Below, piece by piece: positions 1 to 30,380 of a DNA stretch of 44,354 nt. This DNA is from an uncultured Muribaculaceae bacterium (GTDB lineage Bacteria; Bacillota_I; Bacilli_A; RF39; UBA660). Position 1 is the stretch's first letter. Every line of letters begins with the position of its first letter. Both the position numbers and the translations under genes were made by a program. The stretch spans positions 1-44,354 of the forward strand of contig CAYWQQ010000002.1 of the NCBI GenBank assembly GCA_964461005.1. Direction: 5' to 3'. Below the pieces are notes generated by a model. It was not told where the DNA came from, did no database searches, and worked only from the letters and a program-made list of their open reading frames with translations.

Positions 1-322
1 GAGTTTTTCTCATAACCATTGATATACCGTTTTTAGCAATCGAATCATGAATAAAATTTAAACGCAATTCAGCACTTTCGGCATCTAGAAATGGATGAGC
101 CATATTAAATGTTTTACCCATAATATTTGAACATTGAAATGCTATTTTTTCAATAATTGCATTGTTTGCGTCTTGTTTTTCAGCTCTATAAACGCCTTTT
201 GATAAACTCTTAATCCATAATTGACCATTATTACCATAGTCAACATCCGTAATATCGTCATCATTAAGATATTCTTTTAAAGGGCCAAAATCTATATTAT
301 TAAACAAATTGTCCTCGTACAT
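1..322 (-). CDS. CpaF/TadA/VirB11-type secretion/pilus ATPase, N-terminal 107 codons only (gene continues beyond left edge)
   Basis: Own translation of the minus strand from ATG at 322 (SD AGGGGTG 5 nt upstream): MYEDNLFNNIDFGPLKEYLNDDDITDVDYGNNGQLWIKSL...AESAELRLNFIHDSIAKNGISMVMRKT. The ITDV-x3-NG-x3-W and R-x-N...ISMVMRK pattern matches the N-domain of CpaF/VirB11-like ATPases. The Walker motifs would lie outside the window. Confidence 0.55.
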   Translation of the reverse strand, partial: MYEDNLFNNIDFGPLKEYLNDDDITDVDYGNNGQLWIKSLSKGVYRAEKQDANNAIIEKIAFQCSNIMGKTFNMAHPFLDAESAELRLNFIHDSIAKNGISMVMRKT

Positions 323-347
323 ATCTGCACCCCTTTTTTACTTCTTA

Positions 348-1187
348 CTATTCTGTTTTTTCAACTTCTTTAGTTATTTCTTCTCCAATTTCAGGTAATT
401 GGTCTTCAGGCACAACAGCTGTCTTTAATTCAATAAATGTTTTCAAATATTGATTTGAAACATTAATTGCTCCAACTTCTGTATAATATGAAGAAGTATT
501 TGGAACTGGAATTAATTCGGCTTTAATTTCATCATTTTCTTCTAGAAAATAACCTTTTCTTAATAACAAATGCATGTCTTCAGGTAATGCGAAAATAATA
601 CTATTTGATATTCTTTCTTCATCTGTGTTTTCAAAAACATGCTTTCCATTACGATCTTTAACATCCAAAACTTGAATATTTTCTACTAATTTACCAACCA
701 TTACTTTACCAGTATCGTCTATAGCTTTAAAGTAAACATCGATATAATTACCTGGAAAAATTGAATTTCCATATGAAGTATTAACATCTACATTTAAACT
801 GAAAGGAACAAAACCAACTGGAACATTTACTAAATATGAATCCGGTAAATCATCAGCTGTAACTATAGTCCCATCATAAAACAAACTTCCTTCAGGTATC
901 ATTGTGTTGTAATTTGAATATTTATCAATAATCAAATTTGCATTTTGAATTACTTTACCTTGGATCATTGCTGGTGGTATATCTGCATAACCAATCATTT
1001 TATCCGTAATTTTTGTTCTTGGTTGGATAGTTTCCAATGCGTAAGGCATCCTTTGTGGTTTTATTGCTTGATTTACTCTAAAATTGTAAGCAAAATATAA
1101 TACTACTATTCCCAAAATAACCCCTAAAATTGTTACTGTGTTCTTATTACTTAAGAACTTCTTAATGTTAAAAGCAAAATTTTGCAT
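348..1187 (-). CDS. CpaB/RcpC-like Flp-pilus assembly protein (N-terminal TM anchor plus SAF-like domain)
   Basis: 279-aa ORF, ATG with SD AGGAGG. One N-terminal TM (TILGVILGIVVLYFAY), then a SAF-like stretch (PYALETIQPRTKITDKMIGYADIPPAMIQGKVI...MIPEGSLFYDGTIV). The C-terminal part (NIQVLDV...IIFALPEDMHLLLRKG) resembles the RcpC/CpaB C-domain. It lies immediately upstream of the ATPase. Confidence 0.5.
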   Translation of the reverse strand: MQNFAFNIKKFLSNKNTVTILGVILGIVVLYFAYNFRVNQAIKPQRMPYALETIQPRTKITDKMIGYADIPPAMIQGKVIQNANLIIDKYSNYNTMIPEGSLFYDGTIVTADDLPDSYLVNVPVGFVPFSLNVDVNTSYGNSIFPGNYIDVYFKAIDDTGKVMVGKLVENIQVLDVKDRNGKHVFENTDEERISNSIIFALPEDMHLLLRKGYFLEENDEIKAELIPVPNTSSYYTEVGAINVSNQYLKTFIELKTAVVPEDQLPEIGEEITKEVEKTE

Positions 1188-1199
1188 CTTTTTTCCTCC

Positions 1200-1634
1200 T
1201 TATTTCTTTATTTTATTATTTTCATAAACTCTAAAATTGGATTCCAATACAGAATCAATTTTATTTACAACATTGAAATCATCGATTTCATAATTGTAAA
1301 TTTTGACTTCATTTCCAATAATGACTTCCACACTAACCTTTGGTGGTATCTCTATTATATCATAAATATTTATTGTATAGTCAGTTGTTTTTGTATAAGA
1401 ATTAGCAAATCTTCTCGTCAAGTTCTCAACAAACTCTTCTTTAACAATTCTTAATTCTCCTTTTGTTCGATAATAACCCAAATCAATTGAATCAAACATT
1501 GCAGCCTCTGTTGATTCTTTCAGCACATAATATACATCTTCATTTGTCGTTACAATTGTTTGAAAGAAAACCAAAATTGCTAAACCAATTAAGCCCATAA
1601 CAAATACCGCTAATGCAAAATACGATTCTTTCAT
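1200..1634 (-). CDS. Hypothetical N-terminally membrane-anchored 144-aa protein of the Tad-like operon
   Basis: ATG with strong SD (AGAGGGGGA). N-terminal hydrophobic helix ALAVFVMGLIGLAILVFF followed by a soluble domain. No G/xxxxEY or GFTLIE prepilin motif. 1-nt gap to the upstream gene. Confidence 0.6.
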   Translation of the reverse strand: MKESYFALAVFVMGLIGLAILVFFQTIVTTNEDVYYVLKESTEAAMFDSIDLGYYRTKGELRIVKEEFVENLTRRFANSYTKTTDYTINIYDIIEIPPKVSVEVIIGNEVKIYNYEIDDFNVVNKIDSVLESNFRVYENNKIKK

Positions 1635-1635
1635 C

Positions 1636-4221
1636 TTAGTTCCCCCTCTTATATTTATCTAAATTACTATTTATAAACTTGCTTTGTTCTTCTTCTGTTA
1701 AATTAAATTGTCCATATTTATGTGTTAAATTATATAACTTAATAGCAACATTTTGAAAAACACCTGCTCTAAATGAATAAATTGGAGTTTGATTATATAA
1801 AGTATAACCTTTTTTCTCAATATTAGCTGCTACTTTTAAACCTTCTTCACTAAGCCAATTATTTCCATAATAATTATTTTTTAATTTAGATGGAGTAGGG
1901 AAAACTTTGTTTAAAGATATTTGACGATATTTAACATTTATACCTTCTTTACATTTTGTACAACAAGTAGTATTGCTACCAACACAACATGTGCTTTTTT
2001 CTTGTTCTTCTGTACAGCTGCCACCAGGAGGCGTTGGTCCAGGACAAAAAGCATCTTCTTGAGAATATGTTATTAATCCCTTTTTAACTTCATATTCACA
2101 TGTGATTTCTACATCTTTCCTTCTCTCCCAATATTCACCAATATTACGGGCAATACCATCTATAAAAATTTTAAATGGATATTTGCATGTTGCATCTCTC
2201 ACATCAGAGAAAAATACTCTTCCATCTTCTCCAGCTAAATAATATTTTTCAGTTGGACTCATTTCACTTTCAGTAACAATTCTACCTGTTGATTGTTCTG
2301 AATAATATACATTAGCTATATCATAAACGGCATCTTTTATATTTGAATTTAAATTCCATGTGATTGGTACTAAAACTCTGTTATCGCCCTCTTCTCCTTT
2401 GTTACAAGGAGAAAAATTAAATGTATCTTTATCAACGCAGATGTAAGATTCGTTTGAAAAAGAATTTGTTAAAATACCATCATTTGTTTTTTTATACCCA
2501 ACTTCTTTTTGTATTCCACCAGACATTTCAAATTTTCCACTAACTTTAGCATCAAAGGTATATTTGTTAGGACCAGTTGAAAAATTATCTTTTAAATCAA
2601 TACAATTTTCTAGCGCTTCTTTTATAATCCAAGTTGCAATATCTGTTTTAACATTGTAAGTGTTGTCGCAAGCCGTACACTTATAAGCCTCTTTAATTAT
2701 TTTTAAATCTTCAAATATTTTTTTATAGTTATAAAAATCAAATTCACAAAATCTTTTACCGTCTACATTAATTGGATATTTAAACCACATACCGGCGGTA
2801 ACGTATTTCTTACCATCATATTTTACAGAAACATCTTCTTCACATTCTACCTTACAATAACTATTATCAAAAATTATTTCTTTTTTTAATTTAGGTATAT
2901 TGCTTGTTCTCGTTTCGGTATTTTCTGAAACATCACAAGTATAACTGTAAGTTTCTTTACTATCGGGATTTGTTGAAACCATAACAGATCCATCTGGAAA
3001 TTCTTTAACCTTGTCAACCGCATTTTCTAAAGAATCAAGGAGTGCTATTATTGAAGGACAATTATTTACACATTCCGACCCATATCTTGACGTAGTGTTT
3101 CCACCTGTTAATGTTACCCAAAAAGCAGGGACCCAAACATCATCAGCAGGAGTACCATCTTCTTCTGAATACCAAGGTCTTATCCACTTATTACTGCCAA
3201 TACTATCGACTGCCCAGCAACCACTCTTATTAGTGTTATTCCATGTATATGGTGCCCCACATGTTGATTGACCATTACTCATGTAATTTCCAGCACTTGG
3301 AATATGATTATCTTTTTGATAAAAAACTCTATACATTTTAAAATATTTTAGACTAATTGGAAAGCCGCTGCTAGCTCCATCTTGAACTGCTGCTACTTTA
3401 TATGTATAATTAGTCAATATATTAAGATCAAAAGCTTTTGCTGTTCCACGAAACGTAGCCGAATTCCTAGGGTGACCTCCCTGTACTATTGATAAAACTC
3501 GATCTGTACTAGAAAAATTAAAACTAACATCTCCAGATTTAGTGTTTATTTCTGAAAGCACTGATTGTTTTAAAAAATTTATATCATTAATTGTTCTTGT
3601 CGTTCCATTAGATAGAGTAACTGTTAAATCTATTGAAAAATAAAGAGGCTTGTACGTCACTTTATACCAAGTTTCAAATCCATTTCTAAAGACAACTTCT
3701 TTTTTTCTAGAATCTTCTGATTCTAGATATTTTCCAATTATATCTTGCATATTTGTAACAAAACTTGCATCTTCAAACAAAAAATAATTGTTTCTATATT
3801 GTTTATCATTAGACCACCCTTGATTTGAAGCACTATTACAAATATCTTTTTGACTGTCAGCTTTATAAGCATAGCAAACTGTTGCATCATTAATTAAAGA
3901 GGGATTTTTTTCATAAAAAATATTTGTTGTATAATTAAATTCGATTTTGCTACCATTATCATCGCGCAATGGCTGACTTTTTGCACTATCTTTATATAAT
4001 GAGATTGTTATTTTAAATGACGGATTAATATTATCTACCTCTGCACCAACGTCGCCTGGTCCTTTGATTACTGCCCATCCCTCTATAATAAATTTGTTGC
4101 TGTTATCAACACCTATTCTATTTATTCCATATACAGAATTTCCAACCCACGCTGAAAAGGAAATTATAAAAGCAAAAAAAGAAATACTAAAAGCAAATAT
4201 AAATCCAATTATTTTTTTCAT
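1636..4221 (-). CDS. Large exported/anchored cysteine-rich protein (861 aa, 24 Cys), no recognisable family
   Basis: Long uninterrupted ORF. N-terminal signal/anchor MKKIIGFIFAFSISFFAFIISFSAWVG. 24 Cys, all after residue ~113. C-terminal cluster C-x9-C-x8-CC-x6-CC-x2-C at 1951-2046. The ATG overlaps the upstream stop (ATGA at 4218-4221). Confidence 0.8.
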   Translation of the reverse strand: MKKIIGFIFAFSISFFAFIISFSAWVGNSVYGINRIGVDNSNKFIIEGWAVIKGPGDVGAEVDNINPSFKITISLYKDSAKSQPLRDDNGSKIEFNYTTNIFYEKNPSLINDATVCYAYKADSQKDICNSASNQGWSNDKQYRNNYFLFEDASFVTNMQDIIGKYLESEDSRKKEVVFRNGFETWYKVTYKPLYFSIDLTVTLSNGTTRTINDINFLKQSVLSEINTKSGDVSFNFSSTDRVLSIVQGGHPRNSATFRGTAKAFDLNILTNYTYKVAAVQDGASSGFPISLKYFKMYRVFYQKDNHIPSAGNYMSNGQSTCGAPYTWNNTNKSGCWAVDSIGSNKWIRPWYSEEDGTPADDVWVPAFWVTLTGGNTTSRYGSECVNNCPSIIALLDSLENAVDKVKEFPDGSVMVSTNPDSKETYSYTCDVSENTETRTSNIPKLKKEIIFDNSYCKVECEEDVSVKYDGKKYVTAGMWFKYPINVDGKRFCEFDFYNYKKIFEDLKIIKEAYKCTACDNTYNVKTDIATWIIKEALENCIDLKDNFSTGPNKYTFDAKVSGKFEMSGGIQKEVGYKKTNDGILTNSFSNESYICVDKDTFNFSPCNKGEEGDNRVLVPITWNLNSNIKDAVYDIANVYYSEQSTGRIVTESEMSPTEKYYLAGEDGRVFFSDVRDATCKYPFKIFIDGIARNIGEYWERRKDVEITCEYEVKKGLITYSQEDAFCPGPTPPGGSCTEEQEKSTCCVGSNTTCCTKCKEGINVKYRQISLNKVFPTPSKLKNNYYGNNWLSEEGLKVAANIEKKGYTLYNQTPIYSFRAGVFQNVAIKLYNLTHKYGQFNLTEEEQSKFINSNLDKYKRGN

Positions 4222-4874
4222 AAAACACTCTCTTTTCTTTCTTTGATCTTAATTATTATTATTGTTGTTAGTCCTCCAACTATTATTGGTATTGTTATAA
4301 AAAGATAATATTTTTCTAAAAATTTTAACATTTCAGTAAAAAGATCTTTTTTTATTTCTTCTTTTGGATTTTCAATTGGAATTTCTTCTTTTTTTAAACC
4401 TTTAATATAACTATTTAGTCTTAATTTAAATTCCTCATAGGAATTAACTTTATAATAAACAAATTTTTTACACAAATCATAACTTTCATGGTTAACACAT
4501 AATTCATCTTTATAGTATTGATTAAAAAAAGGTAAGGTAATACTTTTTGAAGTTAGTTTTTTATGATAACAAGAACTGCTTTCGCCAGAAATAAATTCTA
4601 AAATATATGTTTTTCCAGGTAATAAATTAGATATTGATGTTTCTTTATTTCCATCCCAATTAATTACGCCTTCATTTTTTACATAACCATTTATATTTGA
4701 ACTTAAACCTTCTGCAATAATTTTAAATGTATTTGCTTTTTCGTTATAAGTATAATTAATAGTTACTTGGCCTACTTCTTTCATTAAACTATTTAATTCT
4801 TCAGAAGTACATTGAGCATTTACTTTAATTGAAAATATAAAAAAAGCAAATAATAATAAACTTATTTTTTTCAT
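4218..4874 (-). CDS. Exported protein with Sec signal peptide and C-terminal TM anchor (218 aa), first gene of the operon
   Basis: I moved the start to ATG 4874 (SD GGGGTG 6 nt upstream); the track's 4883 start is a GTG inside the SD. MKKISLLLFAFFIFSIKVNA|QC is signal-like. C-terminal helix ITIPIIVGGLTTIIIIKI followed by KERKE. 4 Cys. The TGA stop overlaps the next ATG. Confidence 0.7.
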   Translation of the reverse strand: MKKISLLLFAFFIFSIKVNAQCTSEELNSLMKEVGQVTINYTYNEKANTFKIIAEGLSSNINGYVKNEGVINWDGNKETSISNLLPGKTYILEFISGESSSCYHKKLTSKSITLPFFNQYYKDELCVNHESYDLCKKFVYYKVNSYEEFKLRLNSYIKGLKKEEIPIENPKEEIKKDLFTEMLKFLEKYYLFITIPIIVGGLTTIIIIKIKERKESVL

Positions 4875-4906
4875 TCTATGCACCCCGTTATACTATATAT
4901 GTTAAT

Positions 4907-4935
4907 ATTATATCATAAATAAATAAAAAAAACTA
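4907..4935 (-). promoter_or_regulatory. Putative sigma-A promoter (extended -10 ATGATATAAT) of the Tad-like operon
   Basis: The minus strand reads TGATATAAT at 4915-4907. The -35 is weak (TAGTTT, 17-nt spacer). It lies between the trmL terminator hairpin and the SD of the 218-aa gene. Confidence 0.4.
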
Positions 4936-4950
4936 TTTTTTTAAATAGTT
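4921..4950 (-). terminator. Weak AT-rich intrinsic terminator at the trmL 3' end
   Basis: Perfect 8-bp stem aactattt/aaatagtt (4931-4938 / 4943-4950) with a 4-nt loop, followed on the minus strand by TTTTTTATTT. It overlaps the trmL stop codon. Confidence 0.4.
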
Positions 4951-5439
4951 TTTTCCTTTTATTGTTTCATATTTTGATAATCCGAAAAAATATTTTTGGC
5001 GAAGAACTTCATAAAGAATTAAAGCAACACAATTGGACAAATTTAATGAACGAATATCCTTTTTCATCGGTATTCTAAAACAATGATCTAAATTATCTTT
5101 TAATATAGTTTTATCAATACCTGTGCTTTCTTTTCCAAAAACTAAATAGATATTTTCTTTTATTTTATTATATTCAACTTCACTATAAGTTTTTTGGCCA
5201 TATCTAGTAATATAAAAATATTGGCCTGAATTTTTTGAAGCAAAATCTTGATAATTTTCATATACAAAATATTCTAATTCATCAATATAATCCATACCAC
5301 TTCTTTTTAATTGTTTATCAAACAATTCAAAACCTAACGGCTTTATCAAATGAAGTCTAGCCCCAGTCGCAACACAAGTCCTCATAATATTGCCTGTATT
5401 TTGAGGAATCTCAGGTTCAAATAACACAATATTTATCAT
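4933..5439 (-). CDS. trmL: tRNA (cytidine/uridine-2'-O)-methyltransferase TrmL (SpoU/TrmH family)
   Basis: 168 aa. MINIVLFEPEIPQNTGNIMRTCVATGARLHLIKPLGF... and C-terminal RSLNLSNCVALILYE are typical of TrmL/CspR-type SPOUT enzymes. Confidence 0.8.
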   Translation of the reverse strand: MINIVLFEPEIPQNTGNIMRTCVATGARLHLIKPLGFELFDKQLKRSGMDYIDELEYFVYENYQDFASKNSGQYFYITRYGQKTYSEVEYNKIKENIYLVFGKESTGIDKTILKDNLDHCFRIPMKKDIRSLNLSNCVALILYEVLRQKYFFGLSKYETIKGKNYLKK

Positions 5440-5440
5440 A

Positions 5441-5938
5441 CTATTCCTCGATTATTTTGTTAGCTCTTAAAAAGTCATCAACTATTTCAATTGTTAAGTC
5501 ATTACTACTTAAAAAAGCTTTTAATGTATTGTGATTATATAACAATAATGCCGGAACATTTTTTAAATATTGACCCTTTTTACGAAAATCACTGGTGTTA
5601 TAAAGTTTATCTAAACTAACATTCAAATCATAATTTATTAAACCATTAACATTTATATAAACTATTTTATCGTTTAAATTCTCTTTTTCTATATATTGTG
5701 AAAATATTTTTTCAAAATCTTGGCAATTTTTATCATTAGTAATACCTAGATAAACTAATGATACAGGATTTTCTTGAAGATAATTAGTTAATTCAGAAGC
5801 ATTAATTTCACTAATATAGTTAACAATAATAGTTTTGTTTTTTTCGTTTTCTAAATAAACTTTATGCCATTTCAATCCATATACGCAACCTAATATAGTA
5901 ATTATACATAATAAAATAAATAATATTTTTTTCTTCAT
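5441..5938 (-). CDS. Membrane-anchored thioredoxin-fold-like protein lacking a CxxC motif
   Basis: N-terminal TM (ILFILLCIITILGCVY). The soluble part has a Trx-like layout (SLVYLGITNDKNCQDFEK...VPALLLYNHNTL) with only one Cys at the active-site position. The assignment is tentative. Confidence 0.45.
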   Translation of the reverse strand: MKKKILFILLCIITILGCVYGLKWHKVYLENEKNKTIIVNYISEINASELTNYLQENPVSLVYLGITNDKNCQDFEKIFSQYIEKENLNDKIVYINVNGLINYDLNVSLDKLYNTSDFRKKGQYLKNVPALLLYNHNTLKAFLSSNDLTIEIVDDFLRANKIIEE

Positions 5939-5940
5939 AA

Positions 5941-7386
5941 TTACTCCTTCTCAATCTCTTTATTAATATTTAGCCAGTCATCAACATTGAAATATTCACA
6001 TTCAATTCTTTTTAAAGGTTCTATTACTTCAAGTTCATCAAATTTAATTAAAGTTAAATATTTCTTGGCAGAATATTTTTTAATTTTAACTGCAGATAGA
6101 TTTAATTCTGCTTGATATTTTAATAAGAATTCCAAAGCGCTTTCTGGATTTAATTTTTCACTTTTTATTATTTCTTTGGTTATAGCTTTGCATTCAATAT
6201 ATCTTTTACCTTTAGTTACAAAATATAATATATCTCCTTTTTTAGTATTAGAGTAAATTGATTTTTTACTATTAGAGCCTCTTACAATAGCTGTCTTTTT
6301 ACCAGCAATAATTTTATCCATTTCTTTATCCGTTTTTTCTAAAAAGACTAAATGATTACATAAATCTTCTTGATATATTTTTAAATAAAAATCTTTCCAT
6401 ATTTTTAAAACGTTTTCTTTTGAATAAAAATCACTAATATTTTTTGATTTTCTGCTATATTCTTCATATTTTTTATCTTTGGATTTTAAAAGGTTAATTT
6501 GCTTAATGAAATCTGCATTATCAACACCTTTTAAATAATTATCAAAAAGTATATTTTCATATAATTCTAAATCTCTCAATAAGATTGGTACCTCTGTATT
6601 AGATGCTTCAAGAATAGACATAGGAAAGAGCTCGTTATATGAAGGCATAAATAAAACGTCAGCAATATTATACATATCATTCATTTTATCTCTTGGAATA
6701 ATACCTAAGAATTTAACATTTGTTGGAGGTGTTTCAAAAACCTTTTTTAAGTCTTTGTAGCCGTCTGTTATTGCTCCAAAAGAAAAGCCGCCACACCAAA
6801 TAAAAGTTGTCTCTGGCATGCTTTTAGCTACTTCAACAAAGTCTAAAACTCCTTTTCTAGTTTGAACTTGTCCAACACCTAAAACAACAAAGTCATTTTT
6901 AGTAACTCCTATTTCCTTTCTTAGTTTATCTATTTCATTCTGTGATTTTTTATAAAAATCCACCTTTGATACATAATTAGGTATATATTTAATTCTTTCT
7001 TTGGGAATTTTATATGCTTCTAATGCCGGAATAAATATCGGATTAACTACAACTAAATAGTCAGCACTTTTATAAAAATCTATTAAATATTTTTTAAAAA
7101 CTTCAAAAGCTGGCTTTGGTAAATTTATTGATCCATCCAAAGTCTCTGGTAAAAAATGAACGTAGCAAACATTAATCCCTTTACTTGTTTTCATCTTTAA
7201 ATAATTCATCGGTTCAATTGTATGATGATGAATAATGTCAGCATCTTTCCAATCGTTTATACGAACTTCAAAAATATCACTAGCACCTTCTGTAATTAAT
7301 TTAACTTGTTCTAAATAAGCGCTTCCAACCCCTTGGCCTTCTACTGAATCGGCTTTTGAAAGCATATTAATTGATATTTTTTCCAT
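5941..7386 (-). CDS. GT4-family (GT-B) glycosyltransferase with C-terminal ASCH/PUA-like extension
   Basis: 481 aa. Residues 1-~340 have the GT4 layout (NMLSKADSVEGQGVGSAY...; LGIIPRDKMNDMYNIADVLFMPSYNELFPMSILEA with E-x7-E-like motif). Residues ~345-481 (nt 5944-6354) carry IIAGKKTAIVR, close to the ASCH G-x-K-x-x-E-x-R motif, plus GDILYF. Confidence 0.7.
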   Translation of the reverse strand: MEKISINMLSKADSVEGQGVGSAYLEQVKLITEGASDIFEVRINDWKDADIIHHHTIEPMNYLKMKTSKGINVCYVHFLPETLDGSINLPKPAFEVFKKYLIDFYKSADYLVVVNPIFIPALEAYKIPKERIKYIPNYVSKVDFYKKSQNEIDKLRKEIGVTKNDFVVLGVGQVQTRKGVLDFVEVAKSMPETTFIWCGGFSFGAITDGYKDLKKVFETPPTNVKFLGIIPRDKMNDMYNIADVLFMPSYNELFPMSILEASNTEVPILLRDLELYENILFDNYLKGVDNADFIKQINLLKSKDKKYEEYSRKSKNISDFYSKENVLKIWKDFYLKIYQEDLCNHLVFLEKTDKEMDKIIAGKKTAIVRGSNSKKSIYSNTKKGDILYFVTKGKRYIECKAITKEIIKSEKLNPESALEFLLKYQAELNLSAVKIKKYSAKKYLTLIKFDELEVIEPLKRIECEYFNVDDWLNINKEIEKE

Positions 7387-7454: not shown

Positions 7455-8684
7455 TTAAAAGTTAAACATCAGCCATTCAGGTTTAAGTATCATTAATATT
7501 CCTATTAGTACCATTAAAATACCACCTATTAAATGAGAATATTTTGCATACTTATTTGATAATCCAGTTACTTTAAAAGTTTTCATTGCTATGAAAAAAA
7601 TTATTAAATCATCTATTAAGAAAAACAATATATATAGGAATAAGTAAAAACCATATTCTAGAAATGATAAATTGTTTAGTGCTAAAATATTAGTAAATAC
7701 AACTGGTAAACCAGCAGAACATGTTAATTCAATAAAATTAACTGAAACGGCTAAACCAATTATTCCTATAATTGCTAAAGAAAGTTTTGAGCCTGTTGTT
7801 ACTTTTTTAACTTTGTTTAATACCTTAATTCTTTTTTTCTCATCAACAACTTCACAACCATCTTCTTTATTATTAAAGAAGGATTTTAAATTCCAAGCTC
7901 CCCCTATTAATGCTATTAGAGCTATTAAAAGTTTTATCCAAAAAATTGTTCCTAAAAAAACAGTAATATTTAACCAAGCAACCATAAATAGCAAATATAT
8001 TATGGCGGAAGTTCCTAAAAATATCGATCCTAGAATCCACATTTTTTTTCTGTCTTTCATACCAATTAAAACACTTATTAAAAATAGTAAAACCCACATG
8101 GCACAAGGGTTAAAACCGTCTATAAAACCAATTAATATAGATACAATTGGTAAAGATAAATTTTTAGTTGAAATACTACCGAAAAAAGGTATTTCTATTT
8201 TGTTGTTTTCATCATCTTTTTCTTCAGGAAAATATTTTTCTTTTAGTTCTTCGTATGTTGCCGTTCCATTAGTTAAGTCTTTACCAACAATTTTTCCAAC
8301 CGGATCGCTATAAGAATCAGCCTTACTATATACTTTTATAGCATATTCAATAAGTGGTTTGCTTTGAGCACTTGAATAACCAATAAAATACTTTGTACCA
8401 ATTACAGTAAAAGGAACGGACCCAGAATCAACATTCAATTGAGTAGCAACACGACTAAATAAAACGGAGTTATTATAATTATATGCAACTTCATATTTAT
8501 AAACTTGAATATTGGCAAAATCTTTTTTTGTTTCTTCAATATCTTGTAATAAAACCTTACAGTGTGGACAATCACGACTATAAAATATATATATATTAAC
8601 TTTATTATTTAAAGCTTTTCCAAATAAAGGAAATAAAAAAAATATAAATAGTGTTAAAATAATAATTCTGTTAATTTTTTTCAT
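7455..8684 (-). CDS. Extracytoplasmic thioredoxin/DsbA-like domain (CPHC) fused to a CcdA/DsbD-like membrane electron-transfer domain
   Basis: 409 aa. Signal/anchor, then CPHC at residues 39-42 (nt 8559-8570), then a polytopic domain with two membrane-embedded Cys motifs, FNPCAMW and ELTCSAGLP, as in CcdA/DsbD-type transporters. Confidence 0.65.
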   Translation of the reverse strand: MKKINRIIILTLFIFFLFPLFGKALNNKVNIYIFYSRDCPHCKVLLQDIEETKKDFANIQVYKYEVAYNYNNSVLFSRVATQLNVDSGSVPFTVIGTKYFIGYSSAQSKPLIEYAIKVYSKADSYSDPVGKIVGKDLTNGTATYEELKEKYFPEEKDDENNKIEIPFFGSISTKNLSLPIVSILIGFIDGFNPCAMWVLLFLISVLIGMKDRKKMWILGSIFLGTSAIIYLLFMVAWLNITVFLGTIFWIKLLIALIALIGGAWNLKSFFNNKEDGCEVVDEKKRIKVLNKVKKVTTGSKLSLAIIGIIGLAVSVNFIELTCSAGLPVVFTNILALNNLSFLEYGFYLFLYILFFLIDDLIIFFIAMKTFKVTGLSNKYAKYSHLIGGILMVLIGILMILKPEWLMFNF

Positions 8685-8686
8685 AA

Positions 8687-8953
8687 TTACTCCTTAATTA
8701 AATAATTTTCAATATTTTGAATAAGAAAATCTTTCTTTTGCTCTCCGATAATTCTTTTTAATTCAATATTATCTTTGATTAAGATATAAACAGGTAATTT
8801 AGAAGTTATTTGATACGCTTTAGATTCTTCATCAAAATCTAAATCATAAGTAATAAATTCTATTTGTGGATATTGTAATTCCAGCTCTTTTATATTTTTT
8901 TTCATAATTAAACATGAAGAACACCACAAGGCACTAATACTAATAAATTTCAC
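8687..8953 (-). CDS. Small cytoplasmic thioredoxin-like protein (WCSSC)
   Basis: 88 aa. GTG start with SD GGAGG 7 nt upstream, abutting the cysteine desulfurase stop. Active-site-like WCSSC at residues 10-14. Trx-sized. Confidence 0.6.
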   Translation of the reverse strand: MKFISISALWCSSCLIMKKNIKELELQYPQIEFITYDLDFDEESKAYQITSKLPVYILIKDNIELKRIIGEQKKDFLIQNIENYLIKE

Positions 8954-10078
8954 TTATTTGCCTCCAAATTCTTGATAAATTGAGGCAAATTCTTTTTCAA
9001 AAATAGTTAATTCCTCTTCTGTTGTTATATGAGACAAACTAACTCTAATACTTGTTGAAGCTCTTTCTTCGCTGTTAGTTAAACTTAGCACTGATAAAGA
9101 TTGAGGCTTTTCACTAGAACAAGCACTTTTGGTAGAAATATAAATGTTTTTTTCACTTAATGCTTGTAATATTTTATCTGAATCAATTCCCAAAGTGCTA
9201 AAATTTAAAACATGAGGAACAGAAGCAGAAGGACTATTAATAATAATTTGAGAATATTTAGATAAAAATTCTCTCAATTTATTGTTATATCTATCTACTA
9301 AAGAAATTTTTTCTTGAAGATTGGTATTAACTAATTCTAAAGCTTTTGATAAAGAACAAATTAATTCTTGAGATGGTGTACCACTTCTATAAATCGAAGT
9401 ACTCTTGCCTCCTAAAATAATTGGTTCAATAGATATTTCTTCTTTTTTAATTAGTCCACCAATACCTTTTACGCCATAAATCTTATGACCAGAAAAAGAT
9501 GCTAAATCTATATTGGTTAAATCTATATTAGATTTTCCTACACATTGTGTCATATCTACATGAAAATAGCAATTACAACTTTCTTTTAATAATTTACCAA
9601 TTTCTTCAACTGGTTGCCTAATACCTATTTCGCTATCAACAGCTGTAATAGTTACCAAAATTGTATCTTTTCTTATTAAACTTTTTAAATGTTCAAGATC
9701 AATTAAACCTTCTGAAGTTAAATTAACAAAATCTATTGCAAAACCATTTTTTTCAAGATAACTTAAAGGTGCAATAATAGAAGAATGTTCTAATTTGCTA
9801 GTTATTATGTGTTTTCCTTCTTTATAGTGATTTAAGGCTATCCCTTTTATAGCTAAATTGTTTGACTCGGTTGATCCACTAGTATAAATTATTTCTTCAG
9901 GTTTTACTTTAAATATTTCGGCTATTTTAATAGTTTCTTGTTCAATTAATGCCTTTGCACTTTTACCTAAAGCATGTGAAGAATTTGAATTTCCACCAAA
10001 ATTTTTAGATACAAAATTAAATGTATCTAATACTTCTTGATTAATTGGAGTTGTTGCTGAATAATCTAAATAAATCAT
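8954..10078 (-). CDS. Cysteine desulfurase, NifS/IscS-like class V aminotransferase
   Basis: 374 aa. PLP-lysine context SFSGHKIYG, catalytic loop STKSACSS, N-terminal IYLDYSATTP. Confidence 0.85.
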   Translation of the reverse strand: MIYLDYSATTPINQEVLDTFNFVSKNFGGNSNSSHALGKSAKALIEQETIKIAEIFKVKPEEIIYTSGSTESNNLAIKGIALNHYKEGKHIITSKLEHSSIIAPLSYLEKNGFAIDFVNLTSEGLIDLEHLKSLIRKDTILVTITAVDSEIGIRQPVEEIGKLLKESCNCYFHVDMTQCVGKSNIDLTNIDLASFSGHKIYGVKGIGGLIKKEEISIEPIILGGKSTSIYRSGTPSQELICSLSKALELVNTNLQEKISLVDRYNNKLREFLSKYSQIIINSPSASVPHVLNFSTLGIDSDKILQALSEKNIYISTKSACSSEKPQSLSVLSLTNSEERASTSIRVSLSHITTEEELTIFEKEFASIYQEFGGK

Positions 10079-11527: not shown

Positions 11528-11601
11528 TGGAGCAGGTGATGGGAATCGAACCCACGTGGTCAGCTTGGAAGGCTGACGTTCTACCATTAAACTACACCTG
11601 C
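11528..11601 (-). tRNA. tRNA-Gly (anticodon UCC), CCA encoded
   Basis: The reverse complement GCAGGTGTAGTTTAATGGTAGAACGTCAGCCTTCCAAGCTGACCACGTGGGTTCGATTCCCATCACCTGCTCCA folds as a cloverleaf. Anticodon loop CTTCCAA, T-loop GGTTCGATTCC. Confidence 0.93.
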
Positions 11602-12549: not shown

Positions 12550-13292
12550 ATTTCAATGACCTCACTCATTTCACTCTGTGATGTAACTATTAATTTAAAT
12601 TGAGGCTCTTCTATTATTTCCAAATATGTTTCTAAAGCTTTTTCTTTGGTATTGTTTTCTTGACTTAAATGGGCTAAAAATATGTATTTTGTTTTATCAC
12701 CGGCAAATTTTTTCATATATTTAGCAGAATCTATATTAGATAAATGACCTTCATCACTAGCAATTCTTTGTTTTAAATGAAAAGGATATTCTCCATTATA
12801 AAGCATTTCCAAATCATAATTACTTTCGATGATATATACTTCTTTATTTTTTAGTTTAGAAAAATATTTTTCATTTATATAACCAGTATCAGTTATATAA
12901 ACAACTTTATTATTAATAATAAAACCTACTGAATCATCTACATCATGAGATGTTTTAATAATTTTAATATTAAAATTAAAAATATCAAAATCTTCCTCAT
13001 AATAACTCAATTCAATGTTTTGAACATAATTATTAAGATTCTTTTTCATTTTTGGTGTTATAAATACTTGGGGTTGGTATTTTTCATAAAAACGTTTCAA
13101 GCCACAAACGTGATCAGTGTGCGTATGGGTTACTAATACCGCATCGATGTCTTTAGCTTCTACATTTATTTCTTTCAAACTATTTTCAATATAATTACAA
13201 GACATTCCAATATCTAAAAGAAGACGCTTGCCTGCATCTTCAATATACGTAACGTTTCCTTTACTTCCACTACTTAATACGACTATTTTCAT
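12546..13292 (-). CDS. MBL-fold metallo-hydrolase, YycJ/WalJ-like
   Basis: 248 aa. LSSGSKGN, HTHTDH motif. Syntenic with the yycJ-rlmH arrangement of Bacillota. Confidence 0.8.
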   Translation of the reverse strand: MKIVVLSSGSKGNVTYIEDAGKRLLLDIGMSCNYIENSLKEINVEAKDIDAVLVTHTHTDHVCGLKRFYEKYQPQVFITPKMKKNLNNYVQNIELSYYEEDFDIFNFNIKIIKTSHDVDDSVGFIINNKVVYITDTGYINEKYFSKLKNKEVYIIESNYDLEMLYNGEYPFHLKQRIASDEGHLSNIDSAKYMKKFAGDKTKYIFLAHLSQENNTKEKALETYLEIIEEPQFKLIVTSQSEMSEVIEI

Positions 13293-14635
13293 TATTCTTC
13301 CTTGTCTTCTTTTTTATAATTTAAGAATGTTCCTGTATTTCTTTTAAACAATAAATCAACTGATCCTGTAGGTCCACTACGGTTTTTATTAATTATAAAT
13401 TCACTTTCACTAGTAAAGTCATCCGATCTAGCCTCTTTATTATAATAGTCTTCACGATATAAGAATGCAACAATATCAGCATCTTGTTCTATTGAACCAG
13501 ATTCTCTTAAATCACTCATTAACGGCCTTTTGTCATCTCTTTTTTCAACTTCACGAGAAAGTTGTGCTACTGATATAACTGGAATATTTAATTCTAAAGC
13601 CATTGTTTTTAAAGAACGAGAAATTTCTGATACTTCTTGTTGACGATTACCAAGAAAATTACTTCCCGTTGAAACTAATTGTAAGTAATCAATTACAACT
13701 AAATCTAATCCGTCTGGCATACTTGATAAACGGCGACATTTAGATTTTATTTCTCCTACTGTAATCCCCGGAGTATCATCAATATATATATTTGCATCAG
13801 CCAATTGACTAATTGCTTCATTAACTCTTTTCCAATCACTATGTTCTAACTTACCTGTTCTCAATTTGTTTAATGGAATTTGTCCTAATGAAGAAATCAT
13901 TCTGGTTGCTAATTGCTCAGCATTCATTTCTAAGTTAAATATGGCTACTGTTTTTTTATTTGCTGCTGCAAAAGTCGCAACGTTTAACGCAAAAGCAGTT
14001 TTACCCATACCAGGCCTTGCAGCTATAACTATTAATTCTGTTTCGTGAAATCCAGATGTCATTTTATCCACATTACCAAAACCAGTTGCTAATCCCGTTA
14101 TTTCATTTGCATTACTTGCTAATGCTTCTAAATCTGCTTGTGTTTTTGTTAAAATATCTTGAATATTTCTAAATTCACTACCTTTTCTTAGTTTAGAAAC
14201 ACTAAATATTTTTCTCTCAGCTCCATCAATTAAATCATTAAAATTTAATGCTTCATCATAAGCACTTGTAGCTATTTCATTGGCTGTATCAATTAATTTT
14301 CTTACTAATGCTTTTTGATTAACTAAGCTAATATAGTAATCAACATTAGCGGCAGTAGGAACTGAATTTACAATTGTTAATAAATATTCAGTATCACCAA
14401 TCGCCTTTAATTCTTTTTTGTCTTTTAGTTTAGCACTAACTGTTGTCATATCGATAGGTGTATTTTCATTTTTTAATTCAATTAAACAATCATATATTTT
14501 AGCATGTGCTTCAGAATAAAAAGAATCACGAGAAATTTCATCACTTATTTTTTGCAAAGCATATTTTGATAAAAAAGCTGCCCCTAAAACAGATTGCTCT
14601 GCAGATAAATTATGTGGTACTACTCTTTCGTTCAT
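13292..14635 (-). CDS. dnaB: Replicative DNA helicase DnaB (DnaC in Bacillus nomenclature)
   Basis: PHNLSAEQSVLGA N-domain, Walker A ARPGMGKT, DYLQL, SRSLK and QLSR motifs. I moved the start to ATG 14635 (SD AAGGTG); the track start 14644 is the GTG within that SD. Confidence 0.93.
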   Translation of the reverse strand: MNERVVPHNLSAEQSVLGAAFLSKYALQKISDEISRDSFYSEAHAKIYDCLIELKNENTPIDMTTVSAKLKDKKELKAIGDTEYLLTIVNSVPTAANVDYYISLVNQKALVRKLIDTANEIATSAYDEALNFNDLIDGAERKIFSVSKLRKGSEFRNIQDILTKTQADLEALASNANEITGLATGFGNVDKMTSGFHETELIVIAARPGMGKTAFALNVATFAAANKKTVAIFNLEMNAEQLATRMISSLGQIPLNKLRTGKLEHSDWKRVNEAISQLADANIYIDDTPGITVGEIKSKCRRLSSMPDGLDLVVIDYLQLVSTGSNFLGNRQQEVSEISRSLKTMALELNIPVISVAQLSREVEKRDDKRPLMSDLRESGSIEQDADIVAFLYREDYYNKEARSDDFTSESEFIINKNRSGPTGSVDLLFKRNTGTFLNYKKEDKEE

Positions 14636-14645
14636 ATATATCACC

Positions 14646-15089
14646 TTATTCCTTAATTATTTCTATTTTTAAATCAGCTTCAACTTTTTGATCTAAAGCT
14701 ATTTTAACACAATGTATTCCTAAAGTAGATAAATTATTAATAATATTAATTTGTTTCTTTTCAATTTGATAGCCTTTTTCAATTAATTCTTTTTCTATCT
14801 GTTTAGAAGAAATACTACCAAAAACTTTATCTTTATCCCCTGTTTTAATTCTAAACAATAATTTTTCGGTTTCTATTTCTTTTTTTAATTTTAAACTATT
14901 TTCTAATTCAATTTGTTTCTTTGTTTCATTGTCTTTAATTTGTTTATCTAACATTTTGAGATTAGATTCAGTAGCCGCTACAGCTAATTTTTTAGCAATC
15001 AAATAATTATTTGCATAACCTGAACTTACTTCTTTTATTTCGTTTTTCTTTCCTTGACCTTTTACATCAACTAAAAATATTACTTTCAT
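14646..15089 (-). CDS. rplI: 50S ribosomal protein L9
   Basis: [30 protein letters not shown] is the canonical L9 N-terminus. Confidence 0.92.
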
Positions 15090-16057
15090 TATTTAACCCC
15101 CAATATATTTTTTAAATTTTCAGCCACTTCAGCAATTGACTTATTATCGATTTGAGTAGCAGCCTCATTATTATGGCCACCTCCACCCATTTTTCTCATG
15201 ATTTCTTGAACATTAATTTTACCAATTGATCTGGCACTAATTCCTATTTGCTCATGATCTAATTTTCCAATTGTAAATGCAAAATCAATATTTTTTAATA
15301 AAACTATACTCTCAGATATTTTTGCTAAGTCTTCAGCTTTATATAACTTATTTTCTTTTCCTAAAGCAATTAAACAATTGTCATATTTCTTAGCATTGAT
15401 AATGACTTCCGTTCTATCAACATAATCATTAAAGTCCTCTTCCATTAAATAAAACAATTCATCTGATAATGCACCACATTTATATAAATATGCTGCTCCT
15501 TCATGGGTTTTTTGACTTATTCTACTTAAAAAACTATTGCTATCAACATATATTCCAGACAGCATAATAGTAGCTATATAAGGTGGAATATATATATCAT
15601 AGTATTTCAACATTTCTATAACTATTTCAACTGAACTTGACTGTTCACTACAAATATATCCGTATTTATAGCTGCTATCTTCTAAATCATTGTTTATATG
15701 ATGATCAATTATAATTATATTTTCGATTGTTTTAGCTGCTAATTCACTTTGAGTTAATAATAGATTACTTGTATCTACAATGATTAACAAACTTTCTTTA
15801 TCAATATTAATTTGATTATATTTTTTTATTTCAATATCAATGTTATTTTTTTTGATGTTTTGTAAAGAGAGTTTTACGCCATCTTCAAAAGAATCCTCTT
15901 CAATCAATAAAGTGGCTCTTTTACCTAATGATTTAACAAAATAATATAAACCTAAAGAAGAACCCAAGCCATCTAAATCCAGTCTTTTATGAGACATAAT
16001 TATTACTTGAGAGGAGTTTAGTACTAATGATTTTATTTTTTCAATATCTATTTGCAT
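15089..16057 (-). CDS. Stand-alone DHH/DHHA1 phosphoesterase (NrnA/GdpP-catalytic-domain-like)
   Basis: [15 protein letters not shown] (DHH) and GGGGH (DHHA1) motifs. Start taken at ATG 16057 (SD AAGGAG 8 nt upstream) rather than GTG 16066. No TM, PAS or GGDEF-like N-terminal part. Confidence 0.8.
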
Positions 16058-16090
16058 TGTATCCACTCCTTTTTCTATATTATACTATAA

Positions 16091-16120
16091 AATAAATAAA
16101 AAAAGATAATTGCTTATCTT
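16091..16120 (-). terminator. Intrinsic terminator after rpsR
   Basis: Stem aagataa/ttatctt (16103-16109 / 16114-16120), loop ttgc, then a T-run on the minus strand. Confidence 0.6.
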
Positions 16121-30303: not shown

Positions 30304-30380
30304 TGGGGCGACTAGTGGGAATCGAACCCACGAGTACTAGAGCCACAATCTAGCGTGTTAACCACTTCACCATAACCGCC
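30304..30380 (-). tRNA. tRNA-His (anticodon GUG) with encoded G-1 and CCA
   Basis: The reverse complement GGCGGTTATGGTGAAGTGGTTAACACGCTAGATTGTGGCTCTAGTACTCGTGGGTTCGATTCCCACTAGTCGCCCCA has the anticodon loop TTGTGGC and the extra 5' G characteristic of tRNA-His. Confidence 0.93.

Follow-up and report, generated by a model that had tools for sequence, protein, structure and literature searches.

Genes of an operon adjoining trmL

The DNA considered here, called the window throughout, is a stretch of 44,354 nucleotides from the genome of an uncultured bacterium of GTDB lineage RF39 (GenBank assembly GCA_964461005.1, contig CAYWQQ010000002.1, positions 1 to 44,354), and the system in question begins at its left end, where five tightly packed minus-strand open reading frames (ORFs) follow trmL (Table 1). 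In the direction of transcription they encode two cysteine-rich exported proteins of 218 and 861 amino acids (p218 and p861), a DUF5411 protein, a CpaB/RcpC-like protein, and the beginning of an ATPase of the CpaF/VirB11 family. The junctions are a 4-nt ATGA overlap at 4218-4221, followed by gaps of 1, 12 and 25 nt; they and the ORF coordinates are exactly as given in an earlier annotation made from the nucleotide sequence without database searches (hereafter the sequence-only reading). That reading expected the operon to run past the left edge of the window, and it does so: a 136-kb metagenome contig from ENA, 100% identical to positions 1-4935, continues with 16 more co-directional genes, separated by gaps of at most 122 nt, as far as the gene for VirD4. 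Coordinates are window positions unless a locus is named, and everything beyond the left edge, which cuts the operon, was read on this matching contig (loci L001/L011). The five genes are best explained as the promoter-proximal part of a predicted chromosomal operon of about 21 genes and about 23 kb, with a GC content only slightly higher than that of its flanks (28.9% against 26.4%). The placement of the host in a reduced, low-GC, Bacilli/Mycoplasmatota-like lineage, also proposed from the letters, is supported.

Table 1. Features of the window that belong, or may belong, to the system
Feature	Position	Strand	Properties
ATPase, CpaF/VirB11-family (T2SSE), N-terminal 107 codons of 360 aa	1..322	-	continues past window edge
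CpaB/RcpC-like protein, 279 aa	348..1187	-	N-terminally anchored (one transmembrane helix); PF16976, TIGR03177
DUF5411 protein, 144 aa	1200..1634	-	PF17424, E 2.8e-43; N-terminal transmembrane helix (MKES...), beta-rich domain
p861, 861 aa, 24 Cys	1636..4221	-	ORF; predicted Sec-type export; N-terminal signal-like segment only
p218, 218 aa (221 aa from upstream GTG)	4218..4874	-	ORF; predicted signal peptide, C-terminal transmembrane anchor
Candidate extended -10, ATGATATAAT	4907..4916	-	58-nt trmL/p218 intergenic region; TGATATAAT read directly at 4907-4915; role proposed from position
Polytopic membrane protein, 532 aa	18467..20065	-	weak DUF4352 match (Pfam E 0.006)

The extended -10 named in the sequence-only reading is present at its site, and its position makes it the likely promoter of the operon; as a motif it is indistinguishable from chance and has no statistical weight, because promoter-like matches are equally common in shuffled AT-rich DNA (34 sites, with 34.6 predicted from shuffles at a GC content of about 25%). 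The same promoter and terminator scan, uninformative at this composition, found no GC-rich terminator.

The full ATPase, available from the identical contig, matches T2SSE (PF00437) with E 1.4e-28, in agreement with the CpaF/VirB11-like N-domain recognised earlier in the partial ORF. Its best NCBIfam match is VirB11 (TIGR02788, 9e-34), followed by the TadA-type conjugal model TIGR03819 (8e-29), with all equivalog cutoffs missed, and its matches in the PDB are FlaI (5e-18), CpaF (3e-17) and the VirB11 protein HP0525 (6e-15). By these scores the enzyme is about equally close to FlaI, CpaF and VirB11, and its predicted membership in the TadA/CpaF group holds at the family level only. In tblastn searches the closest sequences are ATPases annotated as 'CpaF/VirB11 family' from Gram-positive conjugative plasmids (30-34% identity, E about 1e-40); canonical CpaF (5e-23), VirB11 (about 1e-15) and TrbB are further away.

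The CpaB-like assignment of the 279-aa protein is likewise borne out. With 30.5 bits the protein passes the gathering cutoff of the RcpC model PF16976 (28.8 bits), and its residues 18-203 match TIGR03177 (CpaB) at E 4.5e-9, under that model's cutoff of 71 bits; the RcpC core is weakly similar to that of a canonical CpaB from Sulfitobacter (33% identity over 52 aa, E 0.005). The three genes ahead of it had been described as having no recognisable family, which holds for p218 and p861; the 144-aa protein, on the other hand, is a DUF5411 protein, matching PF17424 at 147.5 bits against a cutoff of 30 and over positions 1-133 of a 134-position model. It is a candidate minor-pilin-like or assembly component, to judge from its N-terminus (see below). 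DUF5411 and CpaB proteins are syntenic with the ATPase in all four relatives that were read gene by gene (L083, L082, L060 and L072). A tblastn search of the PLSDB plasmids with DUF5411 gave no match, and in the literature searched DUF5411 is named only in PMC9523054. In L060 (Clostridium sp. CAG:302, positions 8224-9114) about 160 additional aa are fused to the C-terminal side of the DUF5411 domain (E 8e-53). The topologies proposed earlier for the 218-, 144- and 279-aa proteins fit Kyte-Doolittle windows, which show a single N-terminal signal-like segment for p861.

The exported proteins p218 and p861

The cysteine content of p861, 2.8% compared with 1.0% in the other long ORFs of the window, confirms the count of 24 Cys noted from the sequence. 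Neither p861 nor eight distant members of its family have a match in Pfam, NCBIfam or the PDB, and p861 has no PHROG relative either. Assignment of p861 to adhesins of the Tie, SpaA or internalin type was considered and rejected, as there is no BLASTP similarity to Tie and no such domain match. The family is a small one: only 7 homologs were found among 5.8e9 proteins, and no more than 47 clusters came out of a profile search of 1.84e9 cluster representatives, matching patchily at the termini and at a central Cys motif. A structure model built by AlphaFold2 (AF2) from the 7 available homologs is unusable (predicted local distance difference test, pLDDT, of 35.5).

The alignment of these 7 homologs is mosaic and hypervariable over approximately the first 430 residues and conserved in the C-terminal half. 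Variation is high even between strains: when loci L003-L006 are compared with window positions 1636-4874, strains whose CpaB is 100% and DUF5411 protein 99-100% identical to those of the window have p218 proteins of 82-83% identity and p861 proteins of 58-59%. Between conspecific strains divergence thus drops sharply along the operon (p861 > p218 > DUF5411 > CpaB). One p861 allele, P0243, is near-identical to that of the window from about residue 545 to the C-terminus and unrelated to it in parts of the N-terminal half, a pattern that points to recombination. In L083 the same position is taken by a 952-aa Cys-rich protein homologous only to the C-terminal 130 aa of p861 (hhalign probability 95%); in L060 the large upstream protein has 676 aa and shares only its first approximately 50 residues with p861. 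Judged by the spacing between the p218 and ATPase genes, the p861 gene is absent from this position in L082 and several other loci, and p861 is an accessory component since some relatives lack it. Strain-level hypervariability suggests a recognition protein exposed at the cell surface and subject to diversifying selection or to the exchange of alleles; it would not be expected of a housekeeping part of the machine or of a conserved secreted enzyme.

The second exported protein, p218, has a domain of about 150 aa between signal peptide and membrane anchor, with 4 conserved Cys and no relative in Pfam, NCBIfam, PHROGs or the PDB. Outside the nearest relative its homologs are 22-34% identical, with C22, C102, C126 and C135 invariant. 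They occur at 23 loci in GTDB representatives, and in 13 of the 23 an ATPase motif lies downstream on the same strand. Four of the other ten are on contigs to which the ATPase search assigns an ATPase, three of them with a variant of the motif and one with the ATPase about 8 kb beyond the 7-kb flank; four more are on short or truncated contigs, and two (L103 and L104) have no assigned ATPase linkage. From these comparisons p218 appears to be co-conserved upstream of the ATPase, yet fast-evolving. As to the co-conservation of the upstream genes with the ATPase, on which the sequence-only reading had staked its interpretation, it is seen for the p218, DUF5411 and CpaB genes and is mixed for p861, which some relatives have and others lack.

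Operon genes beyond the window edge and their distribution

The ATPase gene is followed by genes for polytopic membrane proteins of 299 and 261 aa, a hydrophobic protein of 51 aa, a 133-aa protein with an N-terminal helix (p133), and a soluble protein of 326 aa (p326). Seven aligned orthologs of the 51-aa protein share the N-terminus MKEA[TSA]GE[LAV][NS][MI]TV[IL]T, followed by about 22 hydrophobic residues; it appears Flp-like in size and layout and non-canonical at its N-terminus. Proteins of the p133 family begin with MRE[SAG]xG, and DUF5411 proteins with MKES[FY][WF][GA]A, so that the N-termini of all three families run from a short charged leader through a small residue into a hydrophobic helix, as one would expect of a pilin accompanied by minor pilins. 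The absence of a prepilin from the sequence-only reading needs to be amended accordingly: no protein has the G/xxxxEY motif, and a 51-aa Flp-like pilin and pilin-like proteins with an MKEAxG/E motif are encoded just beyond the window. The 299- and 261-aa proteins resemble TadB/C in topology (N-terminal transmembrane helices, a helical soluble domain, C-terminal transmembrane helices). The 261-aa family has 5664 members, some of them named TadB by the Joint Genome Institute, and is homologous to gene 39 of the pLS20 plasmid family (E 2e-6). Position and topology make the two proteins candidate TadB/C homologs. Searches with p254, p241 and p326, unassigned proteins encoded between trmL and a downstream ABC-F gene, gave no matches, and PDB profile searches with the p326, DUF5411, p218 and CpaB-like families returned nothing useful.

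The rest of the operon resembles a type IV secretion system (T4SS) of monoderm bacteria. Three proteins of 107, 112 and 458 aa have weak similarity to T4SS_pilin (VirB2-like); an extended VirB6 of 871 aa, similar to pLS20_p028, matches TrbL_4 at 40 bits against a cutoff of 27; and there is a VirB3/TcpE-like protein of 110 aa. VirB4 (TraC-like plus P-loop_TraG/DUF87) is split into proteins of 182 and 595 aa. At L011 10001-12333 these are a TraC-like N-terminal protein and a P-loop protein whose genes overlap by 4 nt; this division of VirB4 is conserved, and its 182-aa piece by itself has as many as 3756 relatives. Among NCBIfam models VirB4 scores best against Mbov_0397, a family of a Mycoplasma integrative and conjugative element (ICE; NF045975, 1e-102 on an ortholog); scores against the Mycoplasma ICE models fall under the NCBIfam equivalog cutoffs. 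A cell-wall hydrolase of 895 aa (SpoIID, 1.3e-16, plus CHAP, 4e-9), a lipoprotein, and, at the operon end, a 725-aa VirD4 coupling protein (T4SS-DNA_transf/TrwB_AAD_bind) complete the set. With VirB4, a VirB6-like protein, VirD4 and a cell-wall hydrolase, the predicted complement is that of a monoderm conjugative-type T4SS, and it would not be self-transmissible, as no relaxase domain is found among the genes from trmL to the downstream ABC-F gene.

We searched the GTDB species-representative genomes with the ATPase and found at least 581 matching stretches; in the best 80 of these at least 581 the ATPase is 71-95% identical to that of the window. The source genomes are metagenome-assembled genomes labelled Bacilli, Mollicutes or Tenericutes, Acholeplasma sp. 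CAG:878, Clostridium sp. CAG:302, Ca. Fimihabitans, and a closed metagenome-assembled genome of 1.26 Mb, names which we take to correspond to the GTDB order RF39. The flanking housekeeping genes differ between the relatives that carry the system, so that its chromosomal contexts are varied. Between trmL and the ABC-F gene there is no integrase and no DDE recombinase, and the longest repeat shared by the junctions is a 13-bp AT-rich chance match, with no att-like repeats. Lacking a recombinase and a junction repeat, and carrying a widely conserved ATPase, the locus does not look like a typical ICE. A prophage origin was also considered and rejected, the PHROGs matches being limited to an ATPase of unknown function.

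What precedes the T4SS core, and what surrounds the module upstream of it, differs between genomes. Strains of a very prevalent human-gut species share this T4SS core and differ in what stands ahead of it, a 1517-aa EssC-like protein with FHA and FtsK/SpoIIIE domains in L015 (911-5464) and unrelated small genes in L013 and L014; the upstream partners are thus swapped between strains. In L082 (Acholeplasma sp. CAG:878) the upstream module lies between two giant proteins whose N-termini are those of canonical type IV prepilins (4822-6324 and 13277-16120), one of 500 aa with an FGE-sulfatase-like domain and the other, at the module end, of 947 aa with repeated Ig-like segments. As no T4SS follows them, the module may in some genomes serve to display large pilin-like adhesins.

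In relatives L083 and L082 homologs of the 532-aa polytopic protein (Table 1) stand directly upstream of the p218 homolog; in the window the gene is 13 kb away from the operon, which suggests that a rearrangement split the module. On this synteny the protein may be a detached member. As to the wider surroundings, the minus strand of the window carries almost all long ORFs, including those for EF-Tu, EF-G and ribosomal proteins, GC skew is negative across the entire window, and there are two tRNAs (11531-11601 and 30307-30379); the operon is co-oriented with this highly expressed core region.

Relation to known systems and interpretation

Our preferred reading, to which we give a probability of roughly 0.6, is that the operon encodes a type IV filament module of a non-canonical, Tad-like kind, with two Sec-exported surface proteins at its head, together with a relaxase-less monoderm T4SS. 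The Tad-like module would consist of the CpaB-like anchor, the ATPase, the 299- and 261-aa platform-like proteins, the 51-aa pilin, p133, the DUF5411 protein and p326, with the pilin, p133 and DUF5411 having in common an M[KR]E[SA]xG N-terminus and the hydrophobic helix after it; p218 and p861 precede it. The T4SS would be made of the three VirB2-like proteins, the extended VirB6, the VirB3-like protein, the split VirB4, the SpoIID+CHAP hydrolase, the lipoprotein and VirD4. We infer that the ATPase and the platform proteins may assemble a short pilus of 51-aa subunits through the cell wall, with the CpaB-like and DUF5411 proteins as envelope or priming components. The p861 protein, with its disulfide-capable cysteines, hypervariable N-terminal half and conserved C-terminal half, the latter possibly used for docking, would be a variable surface adhesin that sets the partner or the surface contacted, and p218 would be its membrane-anchored partner; the contact would then serve the T4SS of the same operon. 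The sequence-only reading had arrived at a diverged Tad-like machine. Its CpaB-like and CpaF/VirB11-type components stand, and what it lacked is that the module heads an operon also encoding a monoderm T4SS.

Canonical Tad/Flp (type IVc) loci, such as the cpa/tad locus of a Sulfitobacter plasmid (L098) and the Cpa locus of Caulobacter, similarly encode CpaB/RcpC and a CpaF-family ATPase with two polytopic proteins after it, besides a pilin of about 50 aa and small pilin-like proteins with hydrophobic N-termini. They differ from the present operon in having a G/xxxxEY motif, the TadV peptidase, TadZ and TadE/G, none of which was detected at the operon level here, and a secretin, whose absence is expected in a monoderm; nor is their module joined to a T4SS. 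TadE did not match p133 or the DUF5411 protein, whose N-termini are prepilin-like, as is that of the pilin.

Several observations speak against the preferred reading. The 51-aa protein, which has no EY, lacks the Flp processing motif G/XXXXEY. The sequence-only reading had suggested looking leftwards for the remaining Tad parts, and of these the two polytopic proteins and the Flp-like ORF turned up; there is no prepilin peptidase among the 21 operon genes, and p326 has no ParA/TadZ signal in Pfam or the PDB. A narrow motif search for an A24 peptidase, which covered the minus-strand ORFs of at least 100 aa in the window and no other part of the genome, was negative. T2SSF is matched by the two polytopic proteins only at E 0.54 in Pfam; PDB profile searches gave nothing for the 299-aa protein and chance matches for the 261-aa protein (E of 0.86 or more); hhalign comparisons of the two families with canonical TadB/TadC and with each other were not significant, because the alignments have low diversity; and the AF2 model of the 261-aa protein is mediocre (pLDDT 68.7), its Foldseek matches in the PDB being noise. 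Finally, the two modules can occur apart, so their functional coupling is not obligatory. In L082 no T4SS adjoins the Tad-like module, in L013 no Tad-like module is detectable with the T4SS core, and of about 41 loci with complete flanks only 18 have a VirB4 motif in the 10 kb downstream of the ATPase. Counts across loci were made with degenerate DNA motifs and are too low, in this case because the VirB4 motif is 9.75 kb off even in the window's own contig.

The closest known arrangement is found in conjugative plasmids of Gram-positive bacteria. In the pLS20 family (genes 34-54) and in Enterococcus faecium pZB18, as here, a large, N-terminally anchored surface protein is followed by a DUF5411-like transmembrane protein, a CpaF/VirB11 ATPase and two polytopic proteins, one of which is detectably homologous to its counterpart; next come small transmembrane proteins, an extended VirB6 (E 9e-7), a small protein and VirB4, and VirD4 and a cell-wall hydrolase are also present. 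In pBatNRS213, of the pLS20 family, the order is the Tie adhesin, small proteins, the VirB11-like ATPase, two proteins of about 250-270 aa, DUF4320, small transmembrane proteins, VirD4, extended VirB6 and VirB4; in pZB18 the order is unchanged except that a SpaA-like surface protein stands in for Tie. The DUF5411-like proteins directly upstream of the ATPase are sub-threshold matches by hmmscan (E 6e-5 in pBatNRS213 and 6e-3 in pZB18). In contrast to these plasmids, the present locus is chromosomal and has no relaxase and no Rco/Rap/Phr regulatory module; it has a CpaB/RcpC protein, which was not found in the examined stretches of the pLS20 and pZB18 operons, a conserved Flp-like pilin, a split VirB4, and VirD4 at the operon end; and p861 is unrelated to Tie of pLS20. 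In the description of the pLS20 family (PMC8557374), gene 37 is given as a VirB11 homolog and genes 36 and 38-41 are entered as unknown; the literature we searched appears to contain no discussion of this module as a Tad-like one. A review of December 2025 states that Gram-positive T4SSs universally lack VirB11-type ATPases (PMC12857230), which disagrees with PMC8557374 and with GenBank entries listing a VirB11-like ATPase in pLS20, pAW63/pXO2-like and Enterococcus plasmids.

Given this resemblance, the locus might be a plain ICE or the remnant of one, with the ATPase as the VirB11 of the T4SS, the small and polytopic proteins as parts of the channel, p861 as a mating adhesin equivalent to Tie, and no Tad-type filament. 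The plasmid-borne relatives of the ATPase and their similar gene order, the VirB11 model as its best NCBIfam match, the likeness of VirB4 and VirB6 to the Mycoplasma ICE and pLS20 families, and the presence of VirD4 all agree with such a view. We nevertheless consider it unlikely: relaxase, integrase, DDE transposase and flanking repeats were not found at the locus, the ATPase is highly conserved among different housekeeping neighbours, CpaB/RcpC is a Tad hallmark that has not turned up in the plasmid stretches, there are conserved Flp-like pilin candidates, and L082 keeps the Tad-like module without a T4SS.

Somewhat less probable again is a DNA-uptake (competence-like) or other non-conjugative apparatus, in which, going by gene content, the relaxase-less T4SS and the Tad-like pilus would import DNA or exchange material. 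It would account for the lack of a relaxase at the locus, the chromosomal location and the high conservation in reduced genomes, and it has precedents in ComB of Helicobacter, the Ced system of archaea, which imports DNA (PMC9905601), the transformation of Micrococcus, which depends on a Tad (Flp) pilus (PMC4322843), and the co-opted T4SS of Patescibacteria, a relaxase-less chromosomal system of the MPF_FATA-like type (PMC12102498). Against it stands VirD4, a coupling protein of the export type, which ComB-type importers lack (PMC12857230). A co-opted or DNA-importing function is possibly compatible with the Tad-like reading, and does not exclude it.

Small genomes with a monoderm VirB4/VirB6/VirD4 set are known also from the Patescibacteria (PMC12102498) and from bacteria with the Mycoplasma ICE (Mbov_0396/0397). 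The patescibacterial T4SS is, like ours, chromosomal, widely conserved and relaxase-less, which suggests co-option. Both belong to other phyla and differ from the present locus, where a Tad-like module and CpaB are attached; a DDE recombinase of the Mycoplasma ICE type was not seen here. A literature search combining RF39 with VirB4 or type IV secretion returned nothing relevant.

The uncharacterised operon reported from Roseburia, Ruminococcus and Eubacterium (Miller et al. 2022, PMC9523054) has a DUF5411 protein, a CpaF-type ATPase, a PilC-like protein and a large surface protein, and was labelled 'secretion-related' as a prediction from genes alone. The polytopic proteins of our operon occupy the position of its PilC/GspF protein, with T2SSF homology undetectable here. 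The operon differs in host lineage and in its large protein, internalin-like there and without such features here, and neither CpaB nor a link to a T4SS is reported for it. That label, and the translational coupling of the p861 and p218 genes to those of the machine, would suit a type II secretion-like exporter with the two Cys-rich proteins as substrates, in line with the role as cargo that the sequence-only reading had named as one option for them. We regard this as very improbable: both have Sec-type N-terminal segments and p218 a C-terminal membrane anchor, no second-step exporter would be needed for them in a monoderm, many relatives keep the machine and lack p861, and the variability of p861 between strains fits an exposed recognition protein. 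We infer that p861 is best seen as a Sec-exported hypervariable surface or adhesin component and not as cargo.

The components of the operon belong to known superfamilies; a reduced form of the module is present, unrecognised, in pLS20-type plasmids, and a related operon has already been flagged computationally in Clostridia. New are the combination of CpaB, DUF5411, a pilin with the MKEAxG motif and a hypervariable Cys-rich protein, the joining of a Tad-like module to a T4SS, and the existence of such a conserved chromosomal system in a large uncultured lineage. Together with pLS20 and pZB18 the locus points to a conserved module in which DUF5411 and a CpaF/VirB11 ATPase are combined with two polytopic proteins and with small proteins resembling pilins; at the present locus a CpaB protein and a clear Flp-like pilin are added to it. 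Type IV filaments are not normally counted as part of Gram-positive T4SSs. If a filament is built, monoderm transfer systems would have a third means of reaching their partners, in addition to adhesins and VirB2-like pili.

Conservation of the system in at least 581 stretches from small-genome gut and digester Bacilli, without relaxase or integrase, suggests a co-opted machine of physiological importance. As a broader and quite tentative proposition, one we would sooner doubt than assert, RF39-type reduced Bacilli may carry a lineage-wide chromosomal hybrid nanomachine, in which a divergent Tad-like pilus, with a new prepilin motif, DUF5411 and CpaB-like parts and the hypervariable Cys-rich p861 as tip or adhesin, would be coupled mechanically or functionally to a relaxase-less monoderm T4SS for partner-specific contact and for the exchange of DNA or protein needed by these auxotrophic bacteria, much as in epibiotic Patescibacteria; the same core would then be the overlooked 'VirB11 module' of pLS20-type conjugation. 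The strain-hypervariable p861 could provide a handle on partner specificity, and hence on the cultivation of these organisms.

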